Source: Candidatus Magasanikbacteria bacterium CG10_big_fil_rev_8_21_14_0_10_36_32 (GTDB lineage: Bacteria > Patescibacteriota > Patescibacteriia > Magasanikbacterales > GWA2-37-8). From it: DNA of 64,000 bases. Position numbers and translations under genes: made by a program. This document shows, piece by piece, positions 27,899-47,624 of this stretch. The stretch's first letter is position 1, and every line of letters starts with the position of its first letter. The stretch spans positions 2,312-66,311 of the forward strand of contig PFBV01000002.1 of NCBI GenBank assembly GCA_002778465.1, in the 5' to 3' direction. Below the pieces are notes generated by a model, which was not told the DNA's origin, made no database searches, and saw only the letters and a program-made list of their open reading frames with translations.

Positions 27899-28030
27899 AT
27901 TGAAAAGTTATTCACATTTTTAGCTATTCCAAGCATTCGTATTGTGTTATACTAATATAGTAATTGAACAGTTTATGATTGAGCCAAAAAAATATTTTTT
28001 CTCAAACAAATTGGCTTGATTTTGATATTT

Positions 28031-31000: not shown

Positions 31001-34000
31001 AATTCATGCCGCGCCTACAAGGGTAATGCCGGCAATAATGTGCGGGTGGTTTTTCAAGATAATTTTGAAAATGAAGAAATAGGCGATTGGTCTGGAGGTT
31101 TGGGCGGCAGTTTGGAAATTTCCTTGGAATCAAATCAAATTAATGGCCATTCATTAAAGAATTTTGGTCAAGATGGTTTTTATCGTCAGAATGTTGAGGT
31201 TGCAGAAGGTAAGAGTTATGTTTTAACTTTTTGGGCCAAAGGTAATGCTATTATTTTTCCTTCTTTTCAAGATGAAGGAGTTTATAAATTAAGTTTTGGT
31301 GATGCGGTTAGCTTGACTGATGTTTGGCATTATTATTCTTTCGGACCGTTAGAATTTAATCAATCAGTTACCAGTACATATTTAAATTTTAATATTTCAG
31401 GTACGGGATTAAAAAATGTTTTTATAGACAATATAAAATTAATGGAAATTACCGATTACCTGTATTTGGTTAAAAACAGTTTAAGTGTTAATCAGATTTG
31501 TGATAGTAATTTGGAAGATAATATGCCGGGTGAGGCGTTGGGTTGCACGGCCTATAAAGATCCATTAAATAATATATATAATTTAACCAATTTCAGTTAT
31601 CTTTGTCGTGAAGCGGCGGTTGGTTGTACTGCTGTGTTGGATACATATAATACTTTGAATACTGCCGAACCGCGTACTTATAATGTGTGGCTTTATGGCG
31701 AGATGATAAATTTAGATGGTCGGAGCGCTGAGGTGGTAATCGGTGGAAAAACTTTTTCATGTATTGTGCCGACAGGAGCGAAAGGTTGTTATGTTGATAT
31801 TTTTGGACCGACTTTGGCGCAAATAGTAAGTGTTAGTGTTCCTGGTATTTTAACTTCTTCCACTATTTATATTCCGGGAGATACGCCAACCAGTTCACCG
31901 ATTTATTTGGTGGCCAACAAATCGGCAACTTGTAAATCTGAAAATATCGGTTGTCGATCGGTTGGAAAAGGCACTGTCACCAGAGATGGAGTATTGAATC
32001 CTTTGTCCAGTGAATATGAAGATGTGGCGGTTAAAAATGATCCGGCGCTGTTTGATGATGTTTTGTGCGGCAGTGAATCGGTAGGTTGCCGCGGTTACAC
32101 ATCCGGTGACAGCAAATATTATTTTAAAGATCCGAAAATTATCGGCCAACGCGTTTGTGCTTATATGTCCGCTAAAAATGATAGTGGCTTGCCGATTATG
32201 GGTTGGTATTGGAAAGATAATAAAATGTGTGGCGATTCATCCGGATTTTGTTCATCAGATGCCGATTGCGCCGCCGGAGTTAAATGTCAAAATGTTCCGT
32301 GTTATCCTCTTTATTATAAATTTAATGAAACACAAGGCGCTATTGAATGGGGATTGTGGTCTTTTGGCAGTACTCAGTATAAAGGTTTTGTGGGACAATG
32401 TCCTGAAGAACAAAACGGTTGTACTGAATTTATAGATCGTGCCAGCAGCGCTCAGGTTTCTGGTAAAAAATGCGCTTTCACTGGCAAAAAATGTGAACTA
32501 AATAGTGATTGCAATGAAGAAGAAAATGATTATTGTAAAGAAAATGTTTCTGGCACTTATTATCTTTTAAATGATGGAGTTTTGGCTGAAACAAAAAATA
32601 AATGTAATGGCATGGTCAGTCAAGCCGAAGGTTGTATTTTGCTTGATCAAACGGACAAGCCGAATAAATATTGGAATACCACTTCAACCTATGAAGTTTC
32701 CCAATCCGCTCAAGATGCTTTTGTTGTGCCAGTAGATAAAGCCGAATTAAACGATGCCAATATAATTTTAAAAGTTACCCACGACAGAGAATGCGCTGAA
32801 TGGGGATATTGCGATTTAAAACAAGATTATAAAGATGAAGATACTGGTGAAACAACTTCTCGTTGTTATCATTTGGGTGTTTGTCAAAAAGCGACCGGTT
32901 CTTCAATTTTTAACAAAGAATGTTTGGTGCCGGTTACTCAATGGGATGATAAAAATCAGGAACTCTCATTGGCTCATTATAATTCCCGTGAAGCTTATTG
33001 GGATTCTTTGGATTACTCCGGTTATTCAGTGCCATGGCTTTACTCAATTGCTGATTTAACCGCTCGTCCGTTGGCTGGTGATAATTTTCATTTGGTTCAT
33101 GTTGATTACAGTGAAGATGCGGCGGGAGATTGTAATGGCAGCGCCGACAATGGAGATGTTTGCGGTTTGGATGATACGGGAAAGTGTTTTAACGGAGAAT
33201 GTTTGCATTCACCAAATAATTATTCCTCTTTGACTAACCATTTAACATTGTTAAATTGTCGTGGTAACGCCGAAGATTCCAGTCCGTTTCCATCATCTGT
33301 TTTGACTGATGAAAGCGCCAGTTTAGATTATAAAATATTTAAATCAGGATTTGAGAGTGTTAATTTATGTTATGATAAATCCGGCAGTGTGGTAAATTGT
33401 GATTGCAGTTATAAAAAATTAAGAACTTCAGCTGGTGATGTTTATACCCCGTCCAATCAGTCAGTTGGCAGTTCATATGTTTGTAGTGGTGGAACAAAAC
33501 AAGGTAAATTCTGTAATGGAAAAGATGATATCACCACTTGCGGCAGCGATGGTATTTGCGGCGTTATTCAAACATTGAGCGCAATGAACGGCTGGCAGGG
33601 ATATTGTTTGGAACGTGATACGCGACAGTTTATCAATGGCACTGAAACCGGAAATTGTTTGACTTGGTGGCCGATTGAAGTTCCGCCGGGGACTACTAAT
33701 ATTTGGGATATTGACGATTCAGCTGGTTATCAAATTGCTGAAGGAAAACAAGACAGGTTTATGTGTTTGGTTAATGAGCCGGTTATTAACGATCCTGAAA
33801 TAATGATGCATATATTATTATATGGGAGTCATGTTTCCGCAGCCAATGATTATAATATTCAGCAATTACCCAAATCTTATAAAATACAAACCGCCGGTCT
33901 TGACCATAGTTTTAAAATAACCGATTTGCCGCCCAATGCGGCTGTATCTGGTTGTTCGGACAATAATGCGGATGATGATTTTTATGACCCGTTACCTGGA

Positions 34001-36127
34001 ACGCCCAGTAATAATGTATATAATTATCAGATATATGACTATGATAGCAATAAAAATTCAAAAGGAAAGTTTTGTCCAATAAACAGAGAAACTTTGCGCA
34101 AGGATGGCGATACAATGCGAATGTGTGCGAATCCAACTTGGGATGATGATAATCAAACCTATTCTGAATGTCCGCCGTCGGGTATTCTCGCTGCCGATGG
34201 TACGCGTTGGGTAAATAACAACTATGAAAATAAATATTTCCATCGCAATGAAATAGAAAGAATTGATATTGTTTTTGATAGAATAGGCGATGATCAATAT
34301 GCTGATGGATATATTAGTTTTATAACAGACAGTATTAACGCTGTTGAAGGTCATGCTTTTGATACGGAAGAACATTTTTTAAATAAAGAAGGAGAAAGCG
34401 CGACTAAGGGCGTGGTTGATAATTATGAAATGAGATGTCCGGATTGGAATAGTATTGAAGATGGATTGGGAAATTTAAGAGCTTGGGAATGGCGCGGTGG
34501 AGTAGGTGTTCCATCGTGGACTTTGCCTGATGCGGATGATACAACATTAAGTAAAATGCAAGTTCTCGCTCAGGGTGTTTGTGAAGATTTATACAGAGAA
34601 GTTCAAGTTAAATCAAGTGAAGTAAATCAGAAAAATTTGGCTATAAGAGTGGTTTGGGATGGAGATTATCATTTACGCGGTATTTGGGTAAATTTGGAAA
34701 ATACGGGGTCGGCTGATGTAAACGCTGGATTCTTTTTCGTAATCCATTTTAATGATGGCCGTTGTGAAAAATTTGCCAAAGTTGCCACCGATACTGCTTC
34801 AAAAGATTTTGCTTTTAAACCATTCACTAATAATTTAGCGACAGGCAAAACAATCAATATGGGTTCCGCGCCGGTTGGTATTACTTTAACTGACAGAGTT
34901 TCTAATTTAAACGGTGGAAATTACGGATTAGCTTGGGGCGAGGGAGAATATTTAGAACCGCCAAGCGCCAGTGTTAAAGAAGCCTTTGTAAATCCGTTTA
35001 TACCATGGCCCAATACGCATCTTTTTATTGATACTGTGATTTTTTCACAGGGCGGCGATTATTTAAAAAATTATGAAATGACCAATTTTAAAGCCGGCGT
35101 GCCGTTGGTTTGGGCAAGATACGGATTGGCAAAATATGAAGACGGAGGTATTTATGATGGACCTGATTATACAACATTTAATAGTGAGATTTTTGATGTT
35201 TCAACTGTAGATATGCCGTGGGAAATTATGTTGGAAAATATGTACGCCAAAGTTTTTGGACAGTATGAGCAAAGTTACAGTGGTGGTATGCCGACTGAAT
35301 TTACATTATTATCCGGCACGGAATTAGATATGGCAAATTCTGCTAACGCTATCAAAAGCGGATTAAAAATTTATCCGCCTCATGTGGCCGCGCCGATTAT
35401 CGGTTCAACCGGAGATGATTGGCAGTTGGATGCCATATCCGTTAATGACAGGGTGTCCGGTGATATTTATTTAGTCAGCGGTTCGCAGGTGCATATTAAA
35501 TTTTATGCTTGGGCTCATGGTAATCAAATGCCATTGAGAAAAATCTGGGTTGATAAAGGTGATGGAATTAAAATCAGCAATGATAGTGTCAGTTTTGGCA
35601 ACCGCAAATTTAAATGCGCCGAAGGCACTTGTGGCGCCACTGCTGGCGGCTGGCAATTTCCTTGTGAAAATAATGATGATTGTGCGCCATTGTATAGTGA
35701 TTCAATCACGGACGATTCTACTGCCTGTTATTATCCGGCTGCATATGACCATCGTAAGTTTGGTAATACCGGAGATACCGGTTGTCATGAAGGTCCGTAT
35801 GATTTTGTTACTGATTTTAATTGTCCTTACGGCGATTTGACGCATTGGCCTGTTAGTTGGTTGGAACCGGAAGAACAGGCTTATATTCAAAGTCAATTTG
35901 GAGATATTAGTTATGTTTGTATGGTACAACCAAAAGTCCAAGTGACTGATAATTGGGGTTGGTGTAATGGAACTTGTAAAACTACTTATGCTGGAGGTGG
36001 TTCTAATATTGAGGGTGATGGTTGTTATGAAGATTATAGTGGGAAAGATTGTTCAACCGACGAATATGGCAATAACAAAGCTTGGACTAAATATAACGGA
36101 AGATTAATCATTATTCCAACACAATAA
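28031..36127 (+). CDS. Giant (~2,700 aa) Cys-rich secreted protein with a CBM-like domain
   Basis: Signal/TM N-terminus. At least ten spaced copies of a [DN]xGCxA[FY]-like motif (DTDGCRRY, DDGCSAF, DAGCSAF, NIGCRSV, SVGCRGY, QNGCTEF, ALGCTAY, AVGCTAV...). CBM4/9-like jelly-roll segment (VVFQDNFENEEIGDW...FWAKGN). ATG ATG at 28031 (ORF track uses a TTG at 28016). Confidence 0.7.
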   Translation: MMKCPRKISLKILMALFIVSGFFGTAIFGVEKAQAQYDNQINASFLSWQAQGEAEKAKAEVQSNLLKNKNYMVMNAVINAMSYFANKISYDMAVWLASGGKGQAPFSSTSGFFKYLGQVTGDSLGESLGSLGESLGLNICDLPDPRLDLALQLGLNFHYAEPTPKCSWQDLKKAYSVENFKSKYLSQEGTIGRLSASVTVKDTDFGIWTDARAKIDGIAVQKENAAQADREEGSGMKAVTDLISGQVKTPAVVVKDTMMKQSADSKMTKEEAKKTGEVWGAFGAGATQVAYKAASTFISTMLGTVLKNFMEGGMLPGGHKVCNPGLTLTGVNLEPCSSDSSGGNNLADNYYADARNTDNRAAAQAMFSQLLIPQIKTLDNYNLIASLAECSPENLSPDSCVVDQSFLQILQSADNGESLTVKQAMEKGWLHGDWKMISSLDKAASQKQDCSQSAYCQRNMTFLRQARILSVGFEFAALLSPVNNPVSLKEVVDNFYTVGSPYYHLINPHWVIKLPKIRCKAFTFSSIAQNGARLEECSDLQHCVGYNKDGSCQTWGYCMKERPIWKFNANYCDSQYSTCRAFTDSDGNSVGYLVRTLDTSFCGEDTDGCRRYSAGKVYASATNSVWLPEEIKYNTVSNYFYNSSLYFNKKLTSCDAKDDGCSAFKLASKTDTLLYLRKAPDYLGCYDADLKSVPAKLYDGIAWPKNLTELSLVTPQNTEACKNYAQVCLPEEENCNLYTSVLNQEAIPGKFKPAEIVSMTAGQQLVWNDQCDASCVGYAAYKEMPSSYTNGENLAYIIPSSGNTCTSYDAGCSAFTNLSTTNPSGMEQTEYFSYLRSCILPDQTKQKTFYLYESSESGGYKLQTFVLEKDATGAPKQIWRDISEIDSFGDCDSTSYAAGTADPDCHQFNDDGGNIYYKYLSKTILVSENCNPYRLNNTELVDGQCPFDFDGFGNRVGNAVEKINEACYYYGLPVGDTRGAGETKVCSAATNSCRAYKGNAGNNVRVVFQDNFENEEIGDWSGGLGGSLEISLESNQINGHSLKNFGQDGFYRQNVEVAEGKSYVLTFWAKGNAIIFPSFQDEGVYKLSFGDAVSLTDVWHYYSFGPLEFNQSVTSTYLNFNISGTGLKNVFIDNIKLMEITDYLYLVKNSLSVNQICDSNLEDNMPGEALGCTAYKDPLNNIYNLTNFSYLCREAAVGCTAVLDTYNTLNTAEPRTYNVWLYGEMINLDGRSAEVVIGGKTFSCIVPTGAKGCYVDIFGPTLAQIVSVSVPGILTSSTIYIPGDTPTSSPIYLVANKSATCKSENIGCRSVGKGTVTRDGVLNPLSSEYEDVAVKNDPALFDDVLCGSESVGCRGYTSGDSKYYFKDPKIIGQRVCAYMSAKNDSGLPIMGWYWKDNKMCGDSSGFCSSDADCAAGVKCQNVPCYPLYYKFNETQGAIEWGLWSFGSTQYKGFVGQCPEEQNGCTEFIDRASSAQVSGKKCAFTGKKCELNSDCNEEENDYCKENVSGTYYLLNDGVLAETKNKCNGMVSQAEGCILLDQTDKPNKYWNTTSTYEVSQSAQDAFVVPVDKAELNDANIILKVTHDRECAEWGYCDLKQDYKDEDTGETTSRCYHLGVCQKATGSSIFNKECLVPVTQWDDKNQELSLAHYNSREAYWDSLDYSGYSVPWLYSIADLTARPLAGDNFHLVHVDYSEDAAGDCNGSADNGDVCGLDDTGKCFNGECLHSPNNYSSLTNHLTLLNCRGNAEDSSPFPSSVLTDESASLDYKIFKSGFESVNLCYDKSGSVVNCDCSYKKLRTSAGDVYTPSNQSVGSSYVCSGGTKQGKFCNGKDDITTCGSDGICGVIQTLSAMNGWQGYCLERDTRQFINGTETGNCLTWWPIEVPPGTTNIWDIDDSAGYQIAEGKQDRFMCLVNEPVINDPEIMMHILLYGSHVSAANDYNIQQLPKSYKIQTAGLDHSFKITDLPPNAAVSGCSDNNADDDFYDPLPGTPSNNVYNYQIYDYDSNKNSKGKFCPINRETLRKDGDTMRMCANPTWDDDNQTYSECPPSGILAADGTRWVNNNYENKYFHRNEIERIDIVFDRIGDDQYADGYISFITDSINAVEGHAFDTEEHFLNKEGESATKGVVDNYEMRCPDWNSIEDGLGNLRAWEWRGGVGVPSWTLPDADDTTLSKMQVLAQGVCEDLYREVQVKSSEVNQKNLAIRVVWDGDYHLRGIWVNLENTGSADVNAGFFFVIHFNDGRCEKFAKVATDTASKDFAFKPFTNNLATGKTINMGSAPVGITLTDRVSNLNGGNYGLAWGEGEYLEPPSASVKEAFVNPFIPWPNTHLFIDTVIFSQGGDYLKNYEMTNFKAGVPLVWARYGLAKYEDGGIYDGPDYTTFNSEIFDVSTVDMPWEIMLENMYAKVFGQYEQSYSGGMPTEFTLLSGTELDMANSANAIKSGLKIYPPHVAAPIIGSTGDDWQLDAISVNDRVSGDIYLVSGSQVHIKFYAWAHGNQMPLRKIWVDKGDGIKISNDSVSFGNRKFKCAEGTCGATAGGWQFPCENNDDCAPLYSDSITDDSTACYYPAAYDHRKFGNTGDTGCHEGPYDFVTDFNCPYGDLTHWPVSWLEPEEQAYIQSQFGDISYVCMVQPKVQVTDNWGWCNGTCKTTYAGGGSNIEGDGCYEDYSGKDCSTDEYGNNKAWTKYNGRLIIIPTQ

Positions 36128-36222: not shown

Positions 36223-36747
36223 TCAAGCGTAACCTGACTGAATCAGATTGCCATTGGATAGTATAGTCGCTATCAGCCAGCCGCAACTGCCGGTTTTTAC
36301 CAGTGGCAGATTCTTTCCTTGATAATCTCCCTTGAGAAAAGCGAGAGTGCCGTTTCCGGTAAAGTTTACCACGCACATATTTCCGATTTCCGGAGTGATT
36401 GTGACGGTCATCACCATGGTAGTTTCAGTGTTGTACCAGTCGCCGGCGATATGTGTCAGCTCATTGCAACTAGCAGGATCAATGAAAACCAGTTTGGACA
36501 ATTCCGTGTCCATCACACTGTTTTCCGGCTCGGTAATGATTGGCGGCAGATTGAGATCTGAATCGCCGTTCATTTCTGAATCGCCGTATTCATCCATCAA
36601 TTCGCCACCATCAATGTCTTCGTCATAAGGATAACATCCAGATGTTATAACGGCGAACAAGAGCATTACAGCAATGGCTATAATTGCAATGACAATTGTG
36701 GCAACCGCTCCTACTGTAACATGGGAATCATAATGTAAATTTCTCAC
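36223..36747 (-). CDS. Hypothetical small membrane-anchored acidic protein; GC-rich (~48%), likely horizontally acquired
   Basis: GTG start 5 nt after an AGGAGG SD; N-terminal TM helix; the only minus-strand gene within about 50 kb; GC well above background. Confidence 0.5.
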   Translation of the reverse strand: MRNLHYDSHVTVGAVATIVIAIIAIAVMLLFAVITSGCYPYDEDIDGGELMDEYGDSEMNGDSDLNLPPIITEPENSVMDTELSKLVFIDPASCNELTHIAGDWYNTETTMVMTVTITPEIGNMCVVNFTGNGTLAFLKGDYQGKNLPLVKTGSCGWLIATILSNGNLIQSGYA

Positions 36748-36960: not shown

Positions 36961-36989
36961 TTGTTGTCTTCTTTAATTTATGGTATAAT
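36961..36989 (+). promoter_or_regulatory. Sigma70-like promoter with extended -10 (TTGTTG-17-TGGTATAAT) for the T4SS-like operon
   Basis: Consensus-like extended -10 element located ~105 nt upstream of the ATG at 37095. Confidence 0.4.
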
Positions 36990-37094
36990 ATGAGTATTAA
37001 ATTAGCTGTAAAAAGGCTATAAGCGAACGAAGATGAGTGAAATAATCGTCGAGAAGGCGGATATTTCCAAGTCAAGAAGCTTATATTATTATAT

Positions 37095-40000
37095 ATGCTA
37101 CAGACTTTAGCCCGGACCGGGCGAAAATTTTGGAATTTTATCAGACCGCGCAGAAAGTGGGGTCTTATTTCGCTTTTTATTTTTGCCGGTGTCGGTTTGT
37201 GTGTTTATTTTTTTGGCGGAACATTGGTAAATTCAGCCGGTGGTTCTGAAGAAGTATATCAAGGCACTTTGCTTACTAAAATAGTAACCGATATTATGGT
37301 TTGGATTGCCGGATTTTTTATTCAGGCAACAGTTTTTATAATGGATTTTGTTATTGAAATAGCCGGTTATAGTAATTTTATAAATTCCAAAGCGGTTTTA
37401 TTTGGTTGGACGCTGGTGCGTGACATTGCCAATATGTTTTTTGTTGTGATTTTATTGATAATCGCTTTTGGTACGGTTTTGGGCGCTGAAACATATAGCT
37501 GGAAAAAACTTTTGGTAAAATTTGTTTTAGCGGCCGTGTTAGTGAATTTTAGCCGGATAATTTGCGGAATAATTATTGATGCCGCTCAGGTGTTTATGAT
37601 GACTTTTTTGAATGGTGTGGCGGCGGTAGCCGGTGGAAATATTATTAATGCTTTTAAATTAAATGATGTTTTAAGTTTTGATCCGAATGTGCAACCGGAA
37701 GGAATGACAGATGTCAGTGTTTTAGGTTCAGCCATTGCTTGTATGTTTTTTGCGGCGATTGCCGCCTTTACCATCGGCGCTTATTTTATTGTTTTACTCG
37801 GACGTTTAGTGACTTTATGGATTTTAATAATTTTATCGCCGTTGGCTTTTGTTTTAAATGTTATTCCAAAAACTCAATCTTATGCCGGACAATGGTGGTC
37901 TGAATTTACCAACAATGTTATTGCCGGTCCGATTTTGGCTTTTTTTCTTTGGTTGTCTTTTGCTGTGGTTGGCGATGGAATGCCTCATAATGAATTAAGC
38001 GATAATTCGGCTTTTATGTTAAATACCGAATCAGTGGAAAGTACGGGGAATAATAATGTAATGGGTGGTTTGGCTAAAGTTATGGAATGGGGAAATTTGG
38101 CAAATTTTATAATCGCCGTCGGTATGCTTTTAGCCGGCGTAAAAGCAACTCAAAAATTAGGTGTGATTGGTTCCGGTATGCTCGGGAGCGCGGTGGAAAT
38201 GGGCAAAAAAGTTGCGACAGTGGCGACTGGAATAGCGGCTGGCCGATGGTTGGCGCAAAAAGGTGTTGAAGGAACAAAAATTGCAGGCAAAGGCGTGTTG
38301 ATGAAAGCGCCATTTGTTGGCGGAGATGCTTGGAAACGGCGCGGTAGAACTATTGCCGGAAAAGTGTCTTCAAAAGTTCAGGATATTCAATATGCCCGCG
38401 AACAGGCGGCAAAAAAATTAGAGAAAAAAGGTGGTTTTGGAAAATTTGCCGCTGGAATTATTGAAACTGCAACTAAAAAAGAAGAAGCGTCTAAACAATG
38501 GGGGAAATTAGCCGCGATGAAAAAAGAAGTCAGAATGGAAGATATGGGTTTAGGTTCGCGTCAAGTTGGAAAAGATACTTTAGTGGAAAAAGTTCGTTTA
38601 GATACGCTTAAGGCGCAGAGTACTGCCGCCAAAGAACGCTGGTATAATAATGCTTTAGTTAAATTTTATAACGCGCCGGATGAATTAAAAGATTTACAAA
38701 CTCAGCGTGGCGGTTTAGCGACCAGAGAATCAGCGGAACAGGCGATTGTTCAGGAAGCCAGTTTGGAAATTGCTAAAGCTCAAGCTGAGTTGGAGAACAT
38801 AAAAGACAATCCGGAAAAAATCAAACAATTGAATGATAGTATTGCGCAGAGTACTGCTATTAAACAAAATGCTGAACAAAATTTATCTCAGATTGTTGAT
38901 ACCAAAAAAACACTTGATAAACAAGTTGATACTATTTTCAAAGACGATAAAAAATGGAACAAAGACAGTTTGATTGGAAAGGATATTTTAGAACAGAGAA
39001 TCCAAAAGGAAAAAAATATGTCTGATGTGGCCGCCGCTCAAGGTATGATGGAATTAAGTTATTTAAATACCGAAGCCGGCAGACAAGCTCAAGTCAACGC
39101 GGCGGAATCAAAAATTATTCAACAACAGATGGGAGAAACAGTCAATGCTCAAAAACAATTGGTTGAATTAAAAAAGATTGAAGAATTATTGAAAAAGCCG
39201 CAGCCGGGACAAGATGCGTCTGCTTTGTCCGCACGTTATCAGGCTTTGCAGCAGGATATGTATTCCTCCAAAGCCGGCGGAGAACAATTGCGGATTGATC
39301 AAGCTCGCGAGGCGGAAAAGAAATTAGCTGTGGCTCGTGATGAAAAATTAAAACAATCCAGTCAGTTACCTCGTTATTTAAGCCAAGTTTTGCAAAAACA
39401 AAATAAAGAGGATATTGATATGTATTCCTCAAAAAACTTTGACCAAATGATGGCTAATATTAAATTTTTGAGCGGTCAAATGGAAAAAGAGACAGATGTT
39501 GACAAGAAAAGCATAATGCAAAAAGATTTACAGAATTGGGTGGTAGCCTCCTTTAATCGCGGTTCTGATTTTGGCTTAGCCGCTTTGAGTACGGCAAAGA
39601 AAAATAAAGATATTTCCGCTGATAATGTGGATAGCGCCAGAGCTGCTCACTTATCGGCCTTTTTAGGGGAAGAAGTGGAACAGTCATCTGAAGGTGTGAA
39701 TAAGGCTATGGAAAAAATGAAAAAATTGCAGGGTGAAAACTTTGACGCTTTTATGACGAATTATGTTGGCGGTTTATCAATGATGGCTGATAATGGCGCG
39801 GTAACGCACGGCGGTTTGTATAAAATGGTGACTGATAAAAATACCGGCCGGCAGACTTATGAAGTGACACATAAAGATTATGATAAAGATTTGATTAAAT
39901 CCAAAAGAGATTATCATTTGTCTCAGGCTAGGCAAGCCGGTCGCGGATTTAATGGTTCTTTAGATTTTAAAGACGGTAAATTTAAATTAGACAGTGAAGT

Positions 40001-40247
40001 ATCGGTTAACCATGTTGTAAATTTGATTGGCGCTAGAACTTCGGTCGGTTATGCTAATATGCACAAGATGAATTTAGATTCATTAAGCTCTGCCATTGAA
40101 AATACTGATAAGGAAGAATTTTTGAAACAATTAGGTGAAAAATTAAGTAAAAGCATTACTGAAACAAAAGCGATGGAGATGTTATTAAAACGCATTTCGG
40201 GAAAAGCTTTAGATAAAATTAATAAATATATTACATCAAATAAATAA
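37095..40247 (+). CDS. VirB6/TrbL-like polytopic membrane protein with a long C-terminal coiled-coil extension
   Basis: About 7 TM helices in the first 330 aa, followed by ~700 aa rich in Q, K and E (coiled-coil-like); located at the head of a VirB4-containing cluster. Confidence 0.5.
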   Translation: MLQTLARTGRKFWNFIRPRRKWGLISLFIFAGVGLCVYFFGGTLVNSAGGSEEVYQGTLLTKIVTDIMVWIAGFFIQATVFIMDFVIEIAGYSNFINSKAVLFGWTLVRDIANMFFVVILLIIAFGTVLGAETYSWKKLLVKFVLAAVLVNFSRIICGIIIDAAQVFMMTFLNGVAAVAGGNIINAFKLNDVLSFDPNVQPEGMTDVSVLGSAIACMFFAAIAAFTIGAYFIVLLGRLVTLWILIILSPLAFVLNVIPKTQSYAGQWWSEFTNNVIAGPILAFFLWLSFAVVGDGMPHNELSDNSAFMLNTESVESTGNNNVMGGLAKVMEWGNLANFIIAVGMLLAGVKATQKLGVIGSGMLGSAVEMGKKVATVATGIAAGRWLAQKGVEGTKIAGKGVLMKAPFVGGDAWKRRGRTIAGKVSSKVQDIQYAREQAAKKLEKKGGFGKFAAGIIETATKKEEASKQWGKLAAMKKEVRMEDMGLGSRQVGKDTLVEKVRLDTLKAQSTAAKERWYNNALVKFYNAPDELKDLQTQRGGLATRESAEQAIVQEASLEIAKAQAELENIKDNPEKIKQLNDSIAQSTAIKQNAEQNLSQIVDTKKTLDKQVDTIFKDDKKWNKDSLIGKDILEQRIQKEKNMSDVAAAQGMMELSYLNTEAGRQAQVNAAESKIIQQQMGETVNAQKQLVELKKIEELLKKPQPGQDASALSARYQALQQDMYSSKAGGEQLRIDQAREAEKKLAVARDEKLKQSSQLPRYLSQVLQKQNKEDIDMYSSKNFDQMMANIKFLSGQMEKETDVDKKSIMQKDLQNWVVASFNRGSDFGLAALSTAKKNKDISADNVDSARAAHLSAFLGEEVEQSSEGVNKAMEKMKKLQGENFDAFMTNYVGGLSMMADNGAVTHGGLYKMVTDKNTGRQTYEVTHKDYDKDLIKSKRDYHLSQARQAGRGFNGSLDFKDGKFKLDSEVSVNHVVNLIGARTSVGYANMHKMNLDSLSSAIENTDKEEFLKQLGEKLSKSITETKAMEMLLKRISGKALDKINKYITSNK

Positions 40248-40285
40248 AATTAATACTGATAAATTAAGCAAGATAAGTTTTGAAT

Positions 40286-41311
40286 ATGGCATCAATTGTT
40301 AGACAACTAAACGATACTGAACTGCGAGAAAAAAATCTCGTCTATTTTGGTTTTGATACGCAGGAGATGGAAGGTTTTTGGAATGCGTTGCATGAATATT
40401 TTAATGAAGCCTCACCATCTGATGACAGACAATATTGGTGGAGTTTTTTCCGTTGGTATACTGATGCCACATGGCAGGATATGACACGAATAGATAGGGA
40501 TGTTTTTGAAAGGATTGCAGTTGGACGGCAAATACCAATGGCTTTGATTTTGGGTTTTGATGTTTGGAATAGAATTATGGCTTATCTGTCATTAAAAGGA
40601 TTAGATGAAGAAGATACGCAAAACTTATATGTGAAAATTCGCGTCGCTTTTCTTAATTCAGAAGCAATAGTTGGTTATGGAAAAGGAAATTCCGAAATTA
40701 AAATAGTTGATTTAATAAAAGAATTGACTTTGATTAACAGTCGTGGGCGGGATTCAATGGCTATGGCGGAATTTTATGAAAAAATAAAAAATTTATTATT
40801 TCCGTCTAATGATAGTTGGTTAAAAGAGTTTATTGATGTTGATTATAAAGAAGCGGTGATGAAAATGGTAGATTTGATGGATTTTTTTATTACAGTGGAA
40901 TCTGACGATTTACCGGGGATAATGGATATGTATTTGCATTCAGAATTATATCCAACTGCCTCAACTGTTGCTCCGACTTCCGCTAAACAGGTTCAGTCTA
41001 TATCATTTAATCAACCGGAGACGGTCAAAGAAAAAAAAGTTGTTTTACCTGCTAAAAAAACGGAAGTTAAAGCTATTGTTTCAACACCGACTCCAATTCC
41101 GCCCAAGCCTGTCAAACCGCCTGTTCCGTCTTATTTAGATATAAAAAAAGAAGTTAATTTGGTTTTTAAAAAAGATCAGGACGGGGAATTTGTCGATTTA
41201 GACGGAGTCCTGAATAAATTATCTGAACTGGCTGTAAAATATAGCGATAATAAAATCGCTGAACTTTATTATTTTGACGAAAAAGAAAATAAATTTAAGT
41301 GGGGAGTTTAA
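40286..41311 (+). CDS. Hypothetical protein (T4SS-like cluster)
   Basis: ORF with a Pro-rich linker (PTPIPPKPVKPPVP); ATG at 40286. Confidence 0.5.
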   Translation: MASIVRQLNDTELREKNLVYFGFDTQEMEGFWNALHEYFNEASPSDDRQYWWSFFRWYTDATWQDMTRIDRDVFERIAVGRQIPMALILGFDVWNRIMAYLSLKGLDEEDTQNLYVKIRVAFLNSEAIVGYGKGNSEIKIVDLIKELTLINSRGRDSMAMAEFYEKIKNLLFPSNDSWLKEFIDVDYKEAVMKMVDLMDFFITVESDDLPGIMDMYLHSELYPTASTVAPTSAKQVQSISFNQPETVKEKKVVLPAKKTEVKAIVSTPTPIPPKPVKPPVPSYLDIKKEVNLVFKKDQDGEFVDLDGVLNKLSELAVKYSDNKIAELYYFDEKENKFKWGV

Positions 41312-41315
41312 AATT

Positions 41316-42461
41316 ATGTCTGATAACGCAACAATTTTAATTAAAAAAGCTGATGGCACAACCGAGAAGATAACTCTGGCTGAATTTCATGCTCGACAAA
41401 AGCAGTCTGCTCCGGCAGTTTTACCACCGGCGGATATTTCCCATTCTTCCGTTAAACCGGTTAAAATTGAAAAAAAAGTTGAACCGCTAAAATCTTTTAA
41501 TCCGCCAAAGGTAGAATCCAAAATTGAATTGTCAGAAAAAATTAAAAAAACAGAATTTACCAAAGATGATGCCGTTTCGTTGTTGGATGAATCATTGGAT
41601 GATGAAAAACCGAATATGCCTTTAGTCAGCCAGTCGCGTGTTTCTCAAGCTGACGAAATTATAAATAAATTAAATTTTAGAGCGCCGGATACGATTCGAT
41701 TACGAGGATTGATTCAATTGCGGTTGAAAGAAGTGCGAAGCGATGAAGAAACAAGAAGTTGGCTGATTCGGCCGATTGTTGACGGAGGCGCCGGAATCAA
41801 TGCGATGCAAGCTGAAGATGTTTTAAAATTATGCCGTGGAGAAAAAATTTCAAATAACTTTGAAGAAGTTAGTCCTTTAAAAAAAGGTTTACCCGGCGGT
41901 TTAAATGAACTGCCAATGGCTTCCGGCAATAAAACCGCTCCGATTGTTTATAAAGAACAGCCGGTTCCGGCAATTATGCCCAATAAAAAATCTTTTGTTG
42001 CCGCTTCTCCGGCCAAAGAAATAAAAAATTTAGGAGAATTAAAAAAAATATCCGATCAGAATTTGTCTGTTGACAGACATAATAAGATTTTATCTGATGA
42101 CAAAGAAATTCCGTCTGTTCGTCATATGGTGCGAGATATTATTCCGAACAAAAAAACCAGTATGAGTCCGACTGACGAAATTCGCTTTATATCATTGGTT
42201 GATTTTCGTCGTTTGTCCGCTAATCCGGAAGAGGCGATTGCCAGATTAAAACAAAAATTTATCAATTTGAAAGATGAATCGTATCTGCTTTATTTGGATG
42301 CTTTACAGGTTTGGCGAATGAGTCCGTTGTATCAGGATTATGTTGGCAGTGTTATTCGCGCGTTAAATCAAAATGTCCGTCTTAACAATTCATTGTTAGA
42401 TAAAAACAAAATACAAATGACGGAAATATCAGCGATTATTAAAATGGAAAATAGTTTTTAA
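41316..42461 (+). CDS. Hypothetical protein (T4SS-like cluster)
   Basis: ATG at 41316 preceded by a GGGGAG SD. Confidence 0.5.
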   Translation: MSDNATILIKKADGTTEKITLAEFHARQKQSAPAVLPPADISHSSVKPVKIEKKVEPLKSFNPPKVESKIELSEKIKKTEFTKDDAVSLLDESLDDEKPNMPLVSQSRVSQADEIINKLNFRAPDTIRLRGLIQLRLKEVRSDEETRSWLIRPIVDGGAGINAMQAEDVLKLCRGEKISNNFEEVSPLKKGLPGGLNELPMASGNKTAPIVYKEQPVPAIMPNKKSFVAASPAKEIKNLGELKKISDQNLSVDRHNKILSDDKEIPSVRHMVRDIIPNKKTSMSPTDEIRFISLVDFRRLSANPEEAIARLKQKFINLKDESYLLYLDALQVWRMSPLYQDYVGSVIRALNQNVRLNNSLLDKNKIQMTEISAIIKMENSF

Positions 42462-42463
42462 AT

Positions 42464-42889
42464 ATGCAACAATTTGTCGTACCTCAATTTATTGATGTGG
42501 AAGATAAAATTTTCGGACCAATCACGGCGCGGCAGTTTGTGATTTTATTGGTGGCAACATTAATTATTTTTCTCACTTATAAATTAGCTGATATTACATT
42601 ATTTATTTTTTTAACTTTGGTAATAGGCGGTTTAGCTTTAGTTTTTGCTTTTGTTAAAGTAAACGGACAGCCGTTCCATTATGTTATTTTAAGCATGATT
42701 CAGACATTACGCCGACCGAGTTTAAGAGTTTGGAATAAAACTTTTGACAAAAGCGAATTAACTCATTATCGTGAAGAATCAAAAGTTGTGGTTGTTGAAA
42801 AAATTAAACGAGTGCCAAAATTGTCTTACAGCCGTATTCGAGATTTATCTTTGGTGGTAAATACCGGCGGTTATTATAAACCTGAATAA
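42464..42889 (+). CDS. VirB3/PrgI-like small two-TM protein
   Basis: 141 aa with two adjacent TM helices; sits immediately upstream of the VirB4-like region. Confidence 0.4.
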   Translation: MQQFVVPQFIDVEDKIFGPITARQFVILLVATLIIFLTYKLADITLFIFLTLVIGGLALVFAFVKVNGQPFHYVILSMIQTLRRPSLRVWNKTFDKSELTHYREESKVVVVEKIKRVPKLSYSRIRDLSLVVNTGGYYKPE

Positions 42890-42891
42890 TT

Positions 42892-43581
42892 ATGAAAAAT
42901 AAAAAAGCGGTCAATAAAAGAAATGCCGTTCCGACTACACAAAAAAATACGGCTATCGCTGAAATTAAACATGATACTGTAGTGGTAAAAGATGGTACTT
43001 TGCGTTCGGTTTTGATGGTGTCCAGTATTAATTTTGCTTTAAAAAATGACGATGAACAGCAGGCGATTGTGTCTAATTATGTTTCTTTTTTAAATTCGCT
43101 TGATCATCCTTTGCAAATTCTTATTCAATCCCGTCAGCTTAATATAAAACCGTATTTGGAAAGATTGGCGGACAAAGAAAAAGAACAGCCAAATGAATTG
43201 TTAAGAATGCAAATTGCCGATTATCGTTCGTTTGTTTCAGAATTGGTCAATTTGGGAAAAATTATGAGTAAACATTTTTTTGTGGTGGTGCCTTACGATC
43301 CGCTGACAAATAAAAAAAGAGGTTTTTGGTCGCGTTTGCTTGAAGTTATTAATCCGGCCATTACAGTTCGTTTGAAAGAAGAAAGATTTTTGCAGAGAAA
43401 GAGAGATTTGGATATGCGAGTAAGACAAATTCAAGGCGGTTTGCAAAGTATGGGGTTGGAAGTTGTTAAATTAGATACTCAATCGTTGATTGAACTTTAT
43501 TATTCCGCGTATAATCCGGATATCGCTCTTAGCGAACCGTTGGCGGATGTGGTGGAAACCATGCAATTAGAAAACGCTTAA
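42892..43581 (+). CDS. Hypothetical protein; possibly a detached VirB4 N-terminal domain
   Basis: 229 aa; ends 10 nt before the VirB4-like ATPase ORF in a different frame; combined length (~850 aa) matches full-length VirB4. Confidence 0.45.
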   Translation: MKNKKAVNKRNAVPTTQKNTAIAEIKHDTVVVKDGTLRSVLMVSSINFALKNDDEQQAIVSNYVSFLNSLDHPLQILIQSRQLNIKPYLERLADKEKEQPNELLRMQIADYRSFVSELVNLGKIMSKHFFVVVPYDPLTNKKRGFWSRLLEVINPAITVRLKEERFLQRKRDLDMRVRQIQGGLQSMGLEVVKLDTQSLIELYYSAYNPDIALSEPLADVVETMQLENA

Positions 43582-43591
43582 TTTTTTATTT

Positions 43592-45463
43592 ATGGCATTT
43601 AAACCAAGCTCAATTAAAGCAGAAAAAGAATCTACTGGTCGTCTTAAAGAAGATGAAAACAAAATAAAGAAGCAGACGGCCGAAGAAATGATTACTTTGG
43701 AAGAAGAAAAGATTTTTCGCGAAGGTGTTGTCAGTATCCGTGATTTAATAGCGCCTTCCGCTTTTCGCGTTGAATCCAGTTTTATACAATTGGGTGATTT
43801 ATATTGCCGGACTATTTTCATTACCGCTTACCCGAGATATATTTCCATCGGCTGGAGTTCGCCGGTTATTAATTTGTCGGTCACCATGGACATCTCAATG
43901 TTTTTTTATCCGGTTAAATCAGCTGTTATTTTAAAACAATTAAAAAATAAAGTCGGCGCTTTGGAAGCGCAAATTAGTTCCGACACAGAAAAAGGCGCGC
44001 CTCGCGATCCAATTCGGGAAACAGCTTTGCGCGATATTGAACAATTGCGAGATAATTTAACGCAAGGAATTGAACATTTTTTTCAATTTTGTTTTTATGT
44101 TACTCTTTACGCCAAAAGTAAAGAGGAATTGGATCAAACCACTGAAGATATTGAAAATATTTTCGGTTCAAAACTGATTATGAGTCGCAAAGTTTTATAT
44201 CAGGCGGAACAAGGTTTTAATTCCACTTTACCGATGGCAAATGACGAATTGTACATTGCTTTTAATATGAATTCGTCTCCGATTGCCGCTTCTTTTCCAT
44301 TTATTTCCGCGGAATTAACCTCAGATGATGGTATTCTTTATGGCATTAATCGCCATAATAACAGTTTGATTTTGTTTGACCGGTTTTCTTTGCAAAATGG
44401 CAATATGGTGGTTTTCGCTTCGGCCGGTGCCGGAAAAAGTTACGCCGTTAAACTGGAAGTTTTGCGCACAATGATGATGGGAACCGATGTGATGATTATT
44501 GATCCGGAAATGGAATATAAACATCTTTGTGATGCGGTTGGTGGAACTTACATTAGTATTTCGTTGTCTTCGGAAGCAAAAATCAATCCATTTGATTTGC
44601 CCCGTCCGGTCGGTTCTGATATTTCCACTGAGGATATTATTCGTAGCGCCGTTATTACCATGAAAGGCTTGTTGCGTATTATGTTGAATGGTTTGACGGT
44701 GGAGCAGGATTCAATTATGGATAGAGCTTTGATTGAAACTTACGCCAAGAAAGATATTACGCCGGAGGCGGATTTATCCAATATTAAACCGCCGATTATG
44801 CAGGATTTAGTGGAAGTTTTGGAAGGTATGCAAGGTTCCGATGAATTGGTAATGAAATTAAAAAAATATACCGAAGGAACTTTCAGTGGACTGTTTAATT
44901 CGCCGACTAATGTTGATGTTAAAAATCAATTGGTGATTTATAGTGTTCGTGATTTAGAGGATGAACTTCGCCCGATTGCTATTTATTCAATCGTTAACTA
45001 TATTTGGAATGTTGTACGTTCGGAAAGAAAAAAACGAGTTTTGGTGATTGATGAAGCTTGGTGGCTGATGATGCATGAGGACAGCGCCAGATTTATTTAT
45101 GGTTTGGTTAAACGCTGCCGAAAATATTATCTCGGAGTGACTACTATCACTCAGGATGTGAATGACTTTTTGAAATCTCAATATGGACAGGCGATCGTTA
45201 CCAACTCGGCTTTGCAGTTGTTGTTGCGTCAGTCGCCGGCGGCGGTGGATTTGGTTCAGCGGGTGTTTATGTTGACTGACAGCGAGAAATATTTGTTATT
45301 GGAAAGCGGAGTGGGCGAGGGTATATTTTTTGCCGGCAATAAACATGCCGCCATTAAAGTTGTTGCTTCTTATACAGAAGATCAGTTGGTTACCACCAAT
45401 CCGGAACAATTATTGGCTATAGAAAAAGCAAAGCGCGAATTTGAAGAACAGAGTAAAAAATAA
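43592..45463 (+). CDS. VirB4/TraC/TrbE-like conjugative-type ATPase
   Basis: Walker A (ASAGAGKSY), Walker B (VLVIDEAWWL), and a VirB4-like C-terminal region. Confidence 0.8.
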   Translation: MAFKPSSIKAEKESTGRLKEDENKIKKQTAEEMITLEEEKIFREGVVSIRDLIAPSAFRVESSFIQLGDLYCRTIFITAYPRYISIGWSSPVINLSVTMDISMFFYPVKSAVILKQLKNKVGALEAQISSDTEKGAPRDPIRETALRDIEQLRDNLTQGIEHFFQFCFYVTLYAKSKEELDQTTEDIENIFGSKLIMSRKVLYQAEQGFNSTLPMANDELYIAFNMNSSPIAASFPFISAELTSDDGILYGINRHNNSLILFDRFSLQNGNMVVFASAGAGKSYAVKLEVLRTMMMGTDVMIIDPEMEYKHLCDAVGGTYISISLSSEAKINPFDLPRPVGSDISTEDIIRSAVITMKGLLRIMLNGLTVEQDSIMDRALIETYAKKDITPEADLSNIKPPIMQDLVEVLEGMQGSDELVMKLKKYTEGTFSGLFNSPTNVDVKNQLVIYSVRDLEDELRPIAIYSIVNYIWNVVRSERKKRVLVIDEAWWLMMHEDSARFIYGLVKRCRKYYLGVTTITQDVNDFLKSQYGQAIVTNSALQLLLRQSPAAVDLVQRVFMLTDSEKYLLLESGVGEGIFFAGNKHAAIKVVASYTEDQLVTTNPEQLLAIEKAKREFEEQSKK

Positions 45464-45493
45464 TTCACTTTTTATTTAACAGGGTAAAACAAT

Positions 45494-46090
45494 ATGACTA
45501 CACTCCGCACAAGAATTTTTATTATTTTTAGCATATTTTTTCTGTTCGTTTTAGCGGTTAGCATTATTTTGATTGTGATTAATAAGCAAAAACAGGCGGT
45601 TATTGAAACAACTTCTACACCGTCGGCGATAGATTTTGATAATTTTACGCAGGATAAAATTAGCGCGCCGGCTGCCCAAGTGACGCCAACTCAAGGAATA
45701 ACCGTAAAACAACCAACCACTGAGGAACAAATGAAAAATGCCGCTAAACAGATAGCAAAGATTTTTGTGGAACGCTATGGCACTTATTCCACTGATAATA
45801 ATTTCAGCAATATTAAAGAATTGGATACAATGTGCAGTCGGGATTTGTGGAGTGTTTTAAGTTCGCGGATAACTGACACTCAGGTCAATAACGGATTTGT
45901 CGGTGTTACCACTAAAGCGGTTACCTCAGTAATCACTTCTTGGCAAACAGATAAAGCTATTGTTGAAATTACAACTGTCCGGACAGAAACAAAAGATGGC
46001 GTCACTTCTTCAAAAAATCAAAAAGCTACAGTTACTTTGGTTAATGTTCAGAATAATTGGCTGGTGGATGATGCAAAATGGGGACAATAA
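45494..46090 (+). CDS. Membrane-anchored protein (possibly VirB8-like)
   Basis: N-terminal TM helix plus a ~160-aa extracytoplasmic domain; the call rests on context only. Confidence 0.4.
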   Translation: MTTLRTRIFIIFSIFFLFVLAVSIILIVINKQKQAVIETTSTPSAIDFDNFTQDKISAPAAQVTPTQGITVKQPTTEEQMKNAAKQIAKIFVERYGTYSTDNNFSNIKELDTMCSRDLWSVLSSRITDTQVNNGFVGVTTKAVTSVITSWQTDKAIVEITTVRTETKDGVTSSKNQKATVTLVNVQNNWLVDDAKWGQ

Positions 46091-46109
46091 AAAAATATAT
46101 TTAACAAAA

Positions 46110-46141
46110 ACCCCGATATCAAATCGGGGTTTTAAATTTTT
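46110..46141 (+). terminator. Rho-independent terminator
   Basis: ACCCCGAT-ATCAA-ATCGGGGT hairpin plus TTTAAATTTTT. Confidence 0.45.
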
Positions 46142-46852
46142 ATGGATAATTTTTTTAAGTTTATCAAAGATATTCTTTTTCCGATTTTTTGCGTTGATTG
46201 CGGAAAAGAAGGCGAATGGTGGTGTTCGCCTTGCCGTAAGAAAATCAAGTCAGTTTTAATTGCCAAATGTCCGGTTTGTCACCGCCATAGCGAATTTGGC
46301 GCAGTTTGTGTTGTTTGTCGCTCGGTTTCCTCTTTGGATGGTTTGGTTTCCTATTTGCCTTATTTTGAAAAATATCCGGCCGCTATTTTGATTCATAAAT
46401 TTAAATATCAATACGCTAAAGATATTGTTGAAATTTGGAAAAAAATAATGTCGCCGATAAATTTTTTTTGGTTGGAAAATAAAAAAACAGTTGCTATTAT
46501 TCCTGTGCCGTTGCACAGCCGGCGTGAACGGGAGCGCGGTTTTAATCAGGCCGATTTACTTGTCGGAGTTTTTCATGATAAAATGTCTGCTGAATTTTCA
46601 ACAGTTGATTTTCAGATTAATCGTGATTTAATTCGTCGCCGGTTTACTCAACAGCAGGCGAAATTGACTAAAGAGGAAAGGTTGGAAAATATAAAAGATG
46701 CTTTTGATTGGCAAGGCAAAGAATGTCCGAAAACGATTATTTTGATTGATGATGTTTTTACCAGTGGCGCCACTATGCAGGAATGCGCGAAAATTTTAAA
46801 ATCCGCCGGCGCGGAAATTGTTTGGGGTGTCACTCTGTCCAGAGCGGAGTAA
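46142..46852 (+). CDS. comFC: ComF family protein (ComFC-like phosphoribosyltransferase with N-terminal zinc finger)
   Basis: CxxC...CxxC...CxxC...CxxC N-terminus; PRTase motif IILIDDVFTSGAT. Confidence 0.75.
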   Translation: MDNFFKFIKDILFPIFCVDCGKEGEWWCSPCRKKIKSVLIAKCPVCHRHSEFGAVCVVCRSVSSLDGLVSYLPYFEKYPAAILIHKFKYQYAKDIVEIWKKIMSPINFFWLENKKTVAIIPVPLHSRRERERGFNQADLLVGVFHDKMSAEFSTVDFQINRDLIRRRFTQQQAKLTKEERLENIKDAFDWQGKECPKTIILIDDVFTSGATMQECAKILKSAGAEIVWGVTLSRAE

Positions 46853-46925: not shown

Positions 46926-47084
46926 ATGAGGCTGTTGGGTAGTTTCTTTGGTGGCGCGTCAATCGGAGGATTGATTGCTATGTTCATCACAATCCATCCG
47001 GAAATGGTAATTTTTTGGATGGTTTATAGCATCGTGTGCGCCATAATTTCTGCCGGAATGCTCATTGGGTCCAGAAACAAGTAG
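46926..47084 (+). CDS. Small (52 aa) two-TM membrane protein, below the ORF-track length cut-off
   Basis: A GGAGGTG SD lies 5 nt upstream of the ATG; hydrophobic; followed directly by the terminator at 47105. Confidence 0.35.
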   Translation: MRLLGSFFGGASIGGLIAMFITIHPEMVIFWMVYSIVCAIISAGMLIGSRNK

Positions 47085-47104
47085 TTCTTTTTTAGAAAAA
47101 TCCG

Positions 47105-47131
47105 CCAGCTGTTTTTAACAGCTGGCTTTTT
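47105..47131 (+). terminator. Rho-independent terminator
   Basis: CCAGCTG-TTTTTAA-CAGCTGG hairpin plus CTTTTT. Confidence 0.55.
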
Positions 47132-47221
47132 AAATACCCATTTAAACGGGTATTTAAATACGAGATGATTTGTTCAGTGTTTGACTTTTCAATTTATTTT
47201 TGCTATTATTATCCGAGAATT

Positions 47222-47274
47222 GGAGAGGTGGCTTCTGAGCTCCTGCCTGCCGGTAGGCAGGGGTCGAAAGCGGT
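47222..47274 (+). pseudogene. Decayed duplicate of the first 29 nt of tRNA-Ser(GCU), with a 20-bp palindrome inserted in the D-loop
   Basis: GGAGAGGTGGCT-TCT-GAGCT-[CCTGCCTGCCGGTAGGCAGG]-G-GTCGAAAGCGG matches nt 1-29 of the intact tRNA at 47529; interrupted by TCT and the palindrome. Confidence 0.5.
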
Positions 47275-47284
47275 AATAAAATTT

Positions 47285-47528: not shown

Positions 47529-47624
<96 letters not shown>

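Follow-up and report, generated by a model that had tools for sequence, protein, structure and literature searches.

We analysed a row of type IV secretion system (T4SS) genes on a 64,000-nt piece of chromosome (hereafter the window) from a metagenome-assembled genome (MAG) of Candidatus Magasanikbacteria. The closest described systems are those of other Patescibacteria, or Candidate Phyla Radiation (CPR) bacteria. Wang et al. (2023) reported a Gram-positive-like T4SS without relaxase and coupling protein in S. epibionticum (SEML1_0006-0019; PMC10633639). Quiñonero-Coronel et al. (2025; PMC12102498) recorded VirB4 in 2,417 of 3,035 Patescibacteria genomes, where it forms a clade nested in MPF-FATA; TrsD is the commonest partner, PrgI/VirB3 and VirB6 are widespread, and VirB8 homologues are almost confined to class ABY1, in which comF, recG and radA are common near the T4SS and KsgA lies near virB4. 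The same study gives the relaxase as absent from the T4SSs described for this clade, reports a pilin near virB4 in 1,135 assemblies, and proposes the import of DNA or other macromolecules. A 2025 review treats the patescibacterial systems as a new T4SS group (PMC12857230), and a 2026 preprint describes possible T4SS pili at the parasite-host interface. These systems are among the few machines shown to be essential for epibiotic life, the demonstration having come from S. epibionticum alone (PMC10633639).

The row in the window is very probably a chromosomal T4SS of this patescibacterial type, derived from monoderm MPF-FATA conjugation machinery, a judgement that concerns its identity and general mode and not its substrate. 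Family matches, profiles and structural models together show what is predicted to be the cytoplasmic-membrane core of a Gram-positive-type T4SS. The kind of system has been published (Wang et al. 2023; Quiñonero-Coronel et al. 2025) and the locus adds no new kind. It offers a clean ABY1-type example with a complete membrane core, and the new elements are the identification of a 229-aa protein as TrsD, a VirB8 call by fold and profile, a T4SS-adjacent family represented by a 381-aa protein, and a hypervariable VirB6 tail.

Gene content, order and closest relatives

Eight open reading frames (ORFs) run along the + strand across 37095-46852 with gaps of 2-51 nt, all at the positions given in a first-pass annotation of the same DNA. 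The T4SS genes proper (37095-46090) are tightly packed on one strand with a spacing of 2-38 nt, and the ComFC ORF follows beyond a hairpin. The gene order is as listed.

37095..40247, + strand: extended VirB6/TrbL-like polytopic membrane protein, 1050 aa (Pfam matches of orthologues)
40286..41311, + strand: lineage-specific soluble protein, 341 aa, COU29_00550 (variable slot after VirB6)
41316..42461, + strand: conserved T4SS-associated soluble protein, 381 aa, COU29_00555 (family always beside a T4SS)
42464..42889, + strand: PrgI/VirB3-like membrane protein, 141 aa (PF12666, two transmembrane helices)
42892..43581, + strand: TrsD/TraD-like protein, 229 aa (VirB4 N-terminal domain as a separate gene)
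43592..45463, + strand: VirB4 ATPase, CD1110 (MPF-FATA) type, 623 aa (NCBIfam, Pfam and PDB matches)
45494..46090, + strand: VirB8/PrgL-like bitopic protein, 198 aa (fold and profile)
46142..46852, + strand: ComFC/ComF, 236 aa (double zinc ribbon plus phosphoribosyltransferase (PRTase) domain)

Two of the window proteins are 100% identical to COU29_00555 and COU29_00575 of the MAG, which are annotated as hypothetical proteins, and the CPR origin of the DNA is thereby confirmed. Relatives of the locus were drawn from a scan of 185,579 species genomes (one per species), which yielded more than 559; the best 80 were analysed and were patescibacterial-type loci throughout (Magasanikbacteria, Uhrbacteria and Falkowbacteria, plus mislabelled records). 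The gene order was the same in all 80 of these species-level genomes and in 46 of 46 metagenome loci, so that the co-conservation across CPR genomes for which a check had been proposed is indeed observed. Many of the MAG records of the locus (L006-L078) are titled 'uncultured Gammaproteobacteria bacterium' (third-party annotation assemblies), and, to judge from their gene content and from a VirB4 that is 70-80% identical to that of Magasanikbacteria, these titles would seem to be wrong.

Components, gene order and ABY1 features all agree with the clade as PMC12102498 describes it, in line with the earlier proposal of a fit to VirB4-centred CPR systems. Shared features are the chromosomal location, a VirB4 with a separate TrsD, PrgI/VirB3, VirB6, VirB8, and comF and KsgA nearby; likewise, neither here nor in that description does a relaxase or coupling protein stand beside virB4. 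By its gene content the locus appears to be of the form typical of class ABY1. It differs from the Saccharibacteria cluster, which has an essential pilin array, whereas no VirB2-like pilin was found here among ORFs of at least 100 aa in the 64 kb. Moreover, no peptidase or lysozyme lies directly 3' of virB4 in the window, and the two soluble proteins and very long VirB6 tail found here are left unnamed in the sections of PMC12102498.

A split VirB4 ATPase

The 623-aa protein matched the NCBIfam CD1110 family (NF045971) with E=6.5e-106 and 355 bits, above the cut-off of 325, over profile positions 171-730 of 752. It also matched Pfam P-loop_TraG and CagE_TrbE_VirB, as well as the solved VirB4 C-terminal domain in the PDB (4ag5, E=1.8e-49), and the family profile found TrsE of plasmid pSK41 with E=1.7e-53. 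Walker A (ASAGAGKS, 44417-44440) and Walker B (VLVIDE, 45038-45055) are both intact, and the earlier call of a VirB4-type ATPase carrying these two motifs is confirmed. Assignment to FtsK/HerA was rejected, the DUF87/HerA matches being much weaker than those to VirB4 families.

The 229-aa protein encoded immediately 5' had been listed as uncharacterised, a description that no longer holds. It matched NCBIfam TrsD (NF041427) with E=5.5e-10, and the profile of its orthologues matched pSK41 TrsD with E=1.8e-9. The protein aligned to the N-terminal parts of VirB4_plasma (positions 90-223) and CD1110 (18-93), and together with the VirB4 ORF it is colinear on phrog_2666 (positions 5-89 and 129-364, respectively). 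As judged from these alignments, the 229-aa ORF is TrsD, a VirB4 N-terminal part that has become detached. We also considered whether the pair reflects a frameshift or a pseudogene, and rejected this: the two are separate ORFs in 80/80 loci and all three frame offsets occur, so that the gene split is ancient and no sequencing error.

Membrane components

The 141-aa protein matched Pfam PF12666 (PrgI) with E=8.8e-10 and 39.4 bits (curated cut-off 27), has transmembrane helices at residues 26-44 and 46-64, and is encoded in 77 of the 80 loci; these features bear out its description as a VirB3-like protein with two transmembrane segments.

The VirB6-like protein has ∼9 hydrophobic segments in residues 1-350, and its membrane domain (∼20-350) is conserved. 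When the N-terminal domains of the orthologues were searched, PF04610 (TrbL/VirB6) was matched in 15/51 with a best E of 7.8e-6, and no other family recurred. A search of 273 pCF10 and pSK41 ORFs with the family profile placed TrsL (TrbL family) first, at a weak E=0.007, and a search of PDB sequences with the domain profile returned nothing. The VirB6 identity of the 1050-aa protein is thus supported at the family level, by way of its orthologues, and the polytopic VirB6/TrbL-like protein proposed earlier stands on this basis. Hydropathy and charge failed to give a self-consistent topology; only the basic start of the tail was informative, and it pointed toward the cytoplasm.

For the 198-aa protein, an AlphaFold2 model built with 45 homologues (predicted local distance difference test (pLDDT) score of 85.6) comprises one N-terminal transmembrane helix, a disordered linker, three helices and a four-stranded curved sheet, the last parts forming an NTF2-like domain. 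Foldseek searches of the PDB with this model retrieved CagV (a VirB8 homologue, 9.4e-6) and the PrgL VirB8 domain (7aed, 1.1e-4), along with TcpC, several VirB8 proteins, DotI and also other NTF2-fold proteins. The family profile matched the NTF2 part of pCF10 PrgL with 21.5 bits, and Pfam VirB8 was touched by 3/59 orthologues. Because the NTF2 fold is generic (ARC6 and the CaMKII hub match too), genomic context bears part of the VirB8 call. With fold matches to CagV, PrgL, TcpC and VirB8 and a profile match to PrgL, the model and the profile support assignment of this membrane-anchored candidate, already suspected to be VirB8-like, as a VirB8 protein.

By analogy with VirB-type systems, TrsD/VirB4 hexamers would dock on PrgI/VirB3 and the VirB6 membrane domain, VirB8 would scaffold a conduit through the wall, and ATP hydrolysis would power assembly and macromolecule transport at host-cell contact. 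The system would not be used for conjugation.

Comparison with conjugation systems and probable vertical inheritance

The Trs system of pSK41/pGO1 (Staphylococcus; MPF-FATA, pGO1 subclass) has the same order of TrsC (VirB3-like), TrsD and TrsE (VirB4); the window-family profiles match its TrsD (E=1.8e-9) and TrsE (E=1.7e-53) and, for the VirB6-like family, TrsL best. Its VirB4 is only a distant homologue of the window VirB4. Unlike the window, the pSK41 plasmid also encodes a relaxase, the coupling protein TrsK, the CHAP hydrolase TrsG, the topoisomerase TrsI and a small CagC-like protein. The Prg/Pcf system of pCF10 (Enterococcus faecalis) has the order PrgH (VirB6), PrgI (VirB3), PrgJ (VirB4) and PrgL (VirB8-like), which is matched here, and is alike in the Pfam PrgI match, the PrgL profile match and the fold match to the PrgL VirB8 domain 7aed. 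In contrast, pCF10 encodes its VirB4 (PrgJ) in one full-length piece and has no TrsD gene besides, whereas the window ATPase is split; a hydrolase, PrgK, stands between VirB4 and VirB8 in pCF10, which also has the coupling protein PcfC, the relaxase PcfG and the adhesins PrgB and PrgC; and PrgH is without the 700-aa tail.

Since the closest named kin of the recognisable components reside in conjugative plasmids and integrative and conjugative elements (ICEs) (pSK41, pCF10 and the CD1110 family), the row could be read as a mobile element, either an ICE or a plasmid remnant, with a Gram-positive-type transfer system. We find this reading hardly credible. Pfam searches of the ORFs of at least 100 aa in the 64-kb window gave no relaxase, coupling protein, integrase, VirB1-type hydrolase or pilin family, in agreement with the earlier remark that no relaxase, coupling protein or pilin is visible. 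More specifically, neither TrbC nor T4SS_pilin was matched among these ORFs, no hydrolase domain lies between 37095 and 46852, and no replication genes occur in the window. Three small ORFs tried as pilins (46926-47084, 47782-47967 and 53474-53680) are not conserved in the 80 loci, and a phage or defence system was set aside as well, PHROGs and PADLOC having given generic P-loop and PRTase matches only.

The setting also argues against mobility. Housekeeping genes lie on either side of the T4SS block (in the window, LeuRS, NusA, YidC, RF1, KsgA, ClpP, SMC, S16 and TrmD, together with a two-component system, ComEC and the start of 16S rRNA), the G+C content is even at ∼0.36, and the window is ordinary chromosome. 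Order and flanks are kept in 80 species, and the conservation of VirB4 far exceeds that of the genes around it: identity across the 80 loci is 69-87% for VirB4, 51-79% for TrsD and 44-72% for PrgI, compared with 22-54% for the VirB8-like protein, 27-48% for ComFC and mostly 22-57% for HSP20 and VanW. For the 381-aa protein the figure is 22-55% over the best-aligned segment, often the C-terminal domain only. Judging by these alignments, the constraint on VirB4 is unusually strong for a secretion ATPase, and the best plasmid-borne VirB4 is 34% identical. The published phylogeny (PMC12102498) likewise has little T4SS transfer between classes. The lack of mobility parts and the conserved setting therefore rule out an active conjugative element and, with the sequence comparisons, indicate that this T4SS would be a vertically inherited core function under strong selection.

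Two soluble proteins and the VirB6-like tail

The proteins of 341 and 381 aa have no transmembrane segment and matched no family in Pfam, NCBIfam, PHROGs or PADLOC, so that after four libraries of hidden Markov models the ORFs at 40286 and 41316 are as uncharacterised as they had been described. The 341-aa protein evolves faster than its neighbour. A word-indexed search found only 6 homologues; a family member occupies the slot between VirB6 and the 381-aa gene in 29/48 related loci, and in the rest this slot holds an unrelated or unrecognisable ORF, or nothing. The 381-aa protein is encoded in 74 of the 80 VirB4-anchored loci and its family comprises 2,461 representative clusters (E<=1e-3). 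When metagenome loci were anchored on the 381-aa protein instead, PrgI and VirB4 followed downstream in all 46 that had enough downstream DNA. As far as these searches reach, the family is large, unnamed and strictly T4SS-adjacent.

The AlphaFold2 model of the 381-aa protein (pLDDT 74) predicts an N-terminal beta-hairpin plus helix and two small helical domains, with disordered Pro-rich linkers between; comparison with the PDB gave nothing significant by model fold or by profile sequence. The two soluble proteins were considered as paralogues of each other, or as kin of TrsD or VirB8, and rejected as such (hhalign probabilities <2%), and no homology of either to any pCF10 or pSK41 ORF was found by profile. 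In Uhrbacteria-type loci (L060, L064, L067, L070, L073, L074 and L079) a duplication of the middle helical domain brings the homologues of the 381-aa protein to 527-691 aa; fusion with the 341-aa protein, which we had considered as the cause of this length, was rejected. These loci mostly have no separate gene between the VirB6-like gene and the 381-aa homologue; this was not seen for L074.

The VirB6-like tail (∼351-1050) is hydrophilic, rich in K/A/Q/E and poor in Pro. Its sequence is not kept in the orthologues, which measure between 487 and 2018 aa in all, and on these comparisons the tail is hypervariable in both sequence and length. The first-pass annotation had described it as a ∼700-aa coiled coil: a hydrophilic tail of this size is present, but the coiled coil is not continuous, with a heptad signal only at ∼507-617 and ∼846-886. 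The first 90 residues of the tail carry a mean of ∼15 K+R, which favours a cytoplasmic rather than a surface location. The fast-evolving tail and the unnamed 381-aa family just 5' of PrgI, TrsD and VirB4 offer experimental handles; if either the 381-aa protein or the tail is a substrate receptor, it would help to decide between import and export.

A probable promoter and the giant Cys-rich protein upstream

The following features lie 5' of the row.

28016..36127, + strand: giant Cys-rich protein, predicted to be secreted, 2703 aa, 99 Cys (signal-peptide-like N-terminus)
36141-36170: strong terminator-like hairpin after the giant gene (terminator scan)
36961..36989, + strand: promoter-like element, TTGTTG, 17 nt, extended -10 TGGTATAAT at 36981-36989; 106 nt 5' of the first gene

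The motif of the supposed strong extended -10 promoter at 36961-36989 is present, but singly it is not statistically remarkable. Promoter-like sites over the region number 40 compared with 36.9 ± 5.9 in shuffles, which is not above chance, and a consensus scan omitted this element because its -35 element fits at just 3/6 positions. Support comes from recurrence: TGnTAnAAT occurs within 250 nt 5' of the orthologous VirB6-like gene in 19/49 related loci (background rate, 0.045 per 250 nt), and we therefore accept the element as the probable operon promoter.

A giant Cys-rich protein does precede the cluster, as had been stated; however, the terminator at 36141-36170 separates it from the T4SS transcription unit. 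Its sole family match is a weak CBM_4_9, and a homologue is encoded 5' of the VirB6 gene in ∼14/32 loci with enough upstream DNA. These occurrences bear on the proposal that the T4SS exports proteins or effectors to the host cell, or serves adhesion to it by displaying surface structures, with the giant protein or the VirB6 tail as the host-binding element. Protein export, or else some other role, is the reading that Wang et al. prefer for the Saccharibacteria T4SS (PMC10633639), and the hypervariability of the VirB6 tail would be expected of a host-facing part. On the other side, the giant protein carries a Sec-type signal and its gene a separate terminator, so that it can do without the T4SS. 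Neither effector candidates nor secretion signals were identified, the window yielded no pilin gene, and the basic residues at the start of the tail favour the cytoplasm. We consider the proposal as a whole doubtful, and a functional tie of the giant protein to the T4SS speculative.

A 174-aa membrane-anchored ORF without a family match (36223-36747, - strand) lies divergently between the giant and VirB6-like genes. Minus-strand ORFs of 180-225 aa with 4-7% Cys occupy the same position in at least 7 related loci, from which we conclude that it is probably a real, fast-evolving gene.

ComFC, ComEC and possible cargo

Three further features concern the downstream end of the row and the competence genes.

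46107..46133, + strand: GC-rich hairpin followed by a T-rich run (terminator scan, -16 kcal/mol); terminator or attenuator
47104..47126, + strand: strong terminator-like hairpin closing the block (10 pairs, 6 G-C, then a T run)
12797-14278: ComEC, 493 aa (DUF4131 and Competence domains)

The 236-aa protein was identified as ComFC by Pfam DZR_2 and Pribosyltran and by TIGR00201 with E=4.4e-30; the score for the last, 105 bits, is under the curated cut-off of 233. This part of the earlier call held, whereas membership of the operon did not, since the hairpin at 46107-46133 intervenes between the seventh and eighth ORFs and ends 8 nt 5' of the comFC ATG. A hairpin of -10 kcal/mol or lower occupies the same VirB8-like/comFC spacer in 27/56 related loci. 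There is no promoter room between the hairpin and comFC, whose expression is therefore presumed to depend either on partial read-through or on a promoter within the VirB8-like gene. ComFC is a conserved neighbour that may or may not belong to the machine. ComEC was found elsewhere in the window, as had been noted.

H. pylori ComB and archaeal Ced are T4SS-type DNA importers that are also without a relaxase and coupling protein, and they share with the window a core built on a VirB4-family ATPase. Both act with or beside competence proteins, and ComFC has reportedly been characterised in H. pylori by Damke and colleagues in 2022. The ComB outer-membrane parts (VirB7, VirB9 and VirB10) are irrelevant in a monoderm. 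A dedicated DNA-uptake machine of this sort, passing DNA to ComEC and ComFC for transformation or nucleotide salvage, would explain why comFC directly follows the VirB8-like gene and lies within 1.5 kb of VirB4 in 63/68 loci, and ComEC is encoded in the same window. ABY1 loci also tend to carry recG and radA (PMC12102498). Nevertheless, ComEC lies 23 kb upstream and outside the cluster, the hairpin sets comFC apart, and the CedB match (∼51 bits, E=1.2e-13, compared with a cut-off of 700) is at the P-loop level only; CedD reached 21.6 bits against 600 (NCBIfam), and family searches of the cluster gave no CedA-like or ComB-specific matches. Patescibacteria, moreover, already own type IV pili for competence, and transformation of S. 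epibionticum depends on ComEC (PMC10633639). We regard a dedicated competence machine as unlikely, and the 'competence-type' label of the first-pass annotation is not established.

Among the possible cargoes, import of host-derived nucleic acid is the reading that we tentatively prefer for this lineage because of the comFC linkage, the DNA-translocating ancestry of the machinery and the absence of export-specific parts (relaxase and coupling protein). Under the import reading, ComFC would handle incoming single strands, and the 381-aa protein and VirB6 tail would be cytoplasmic adaptors replacing the missing coupling protein. Protein export to the host, taken by itself, seems a rather doubtful possibility, and a purely structural or adhesive role an improbable one.

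Several points weigh against import, or against the T4SS identification beneath it. In S. epibionticum the T4SS is required for epibiotic growth, yet comEC, comF and dprA can be lost, so that the essential role there is a different one (PMC10633639); this Tn-seq result argues against dependence on the Com pathway. On its 5' side comFC is set off by a terminator-like hairpin, in the window as in about half of the related loci. Synteny is generally high in the lineage, which makes adjacency weak evidence: the HSP20, VanW and 521-aa membrane protein genes also recur downstream in relatives, and comFC adjacency is therefore suggestive and no proof of shared function. VirD4, the relaxase and VirB2-like pilins are often encoded apart from virB4 in the phylum (PMC12102498), and the 1050-aa window protein itself matched no family in Pfam or NCBIfam.

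A more specific form of the import reading makes the ABY1 T4SS a contact-dependent importer of host nucleic acid in which the 381-aa and 341-aa proteins and the VirB6 tail replace the coupling protein and ComFC, produced by read-through, receives the strand. This combination we judge distinctly improbable; if it were true, the 381-aa family would represent a novel fold and a novel, widespread component of T4SSs.

Other features of the window

The ComEC gene seems to be split across 12797-15986. The metallo-beta-lactamase domain that ComEC usually carries is encoded apart, in a 285-aa ORF (15129-15986), and between the two ORFs lie a methyltransferase (14223-14843) and a small GIY-YIG ORF (14865-15125). 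A second small GIY-YIG ORF (47165-47527) is located just 3' of comFC and 2 nt before tRNA-Ser(GCT) (47529-47624); the Pfam match in this ORF starts at residue 41, and the true start is therefore probably later. Farther along, a 521-aa polytopic membrane protein without a family match (48004-49569, + strand) follows the GIY-YIG ORF and tRNA-Ser. In more than 20 related loci (10 from genomes and 10 from metagenomes) its gene adjoins comFC but lies on the opposite strand, and the difference suggests a local inversion or insertion.

A VanW/PG_binding_4 protein is encoded 4 kb downstream of the cluster, and any link between it and the T4SS would be conjectural. Between the VanW-like gene and clpP, ∼920 bp (52843-53764) contain no conserved ORF, and Rfam gave nothing there at the gathering or E<=1 level except terminator-like noise. 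At the other end of the window, a 1921-aa protein with Ig-like and InlB B-repeat domains is encoded amid three single-domain response regulators and a PAS histidine kinase (3918-12794), and this region may be a regulated surface-protein module.

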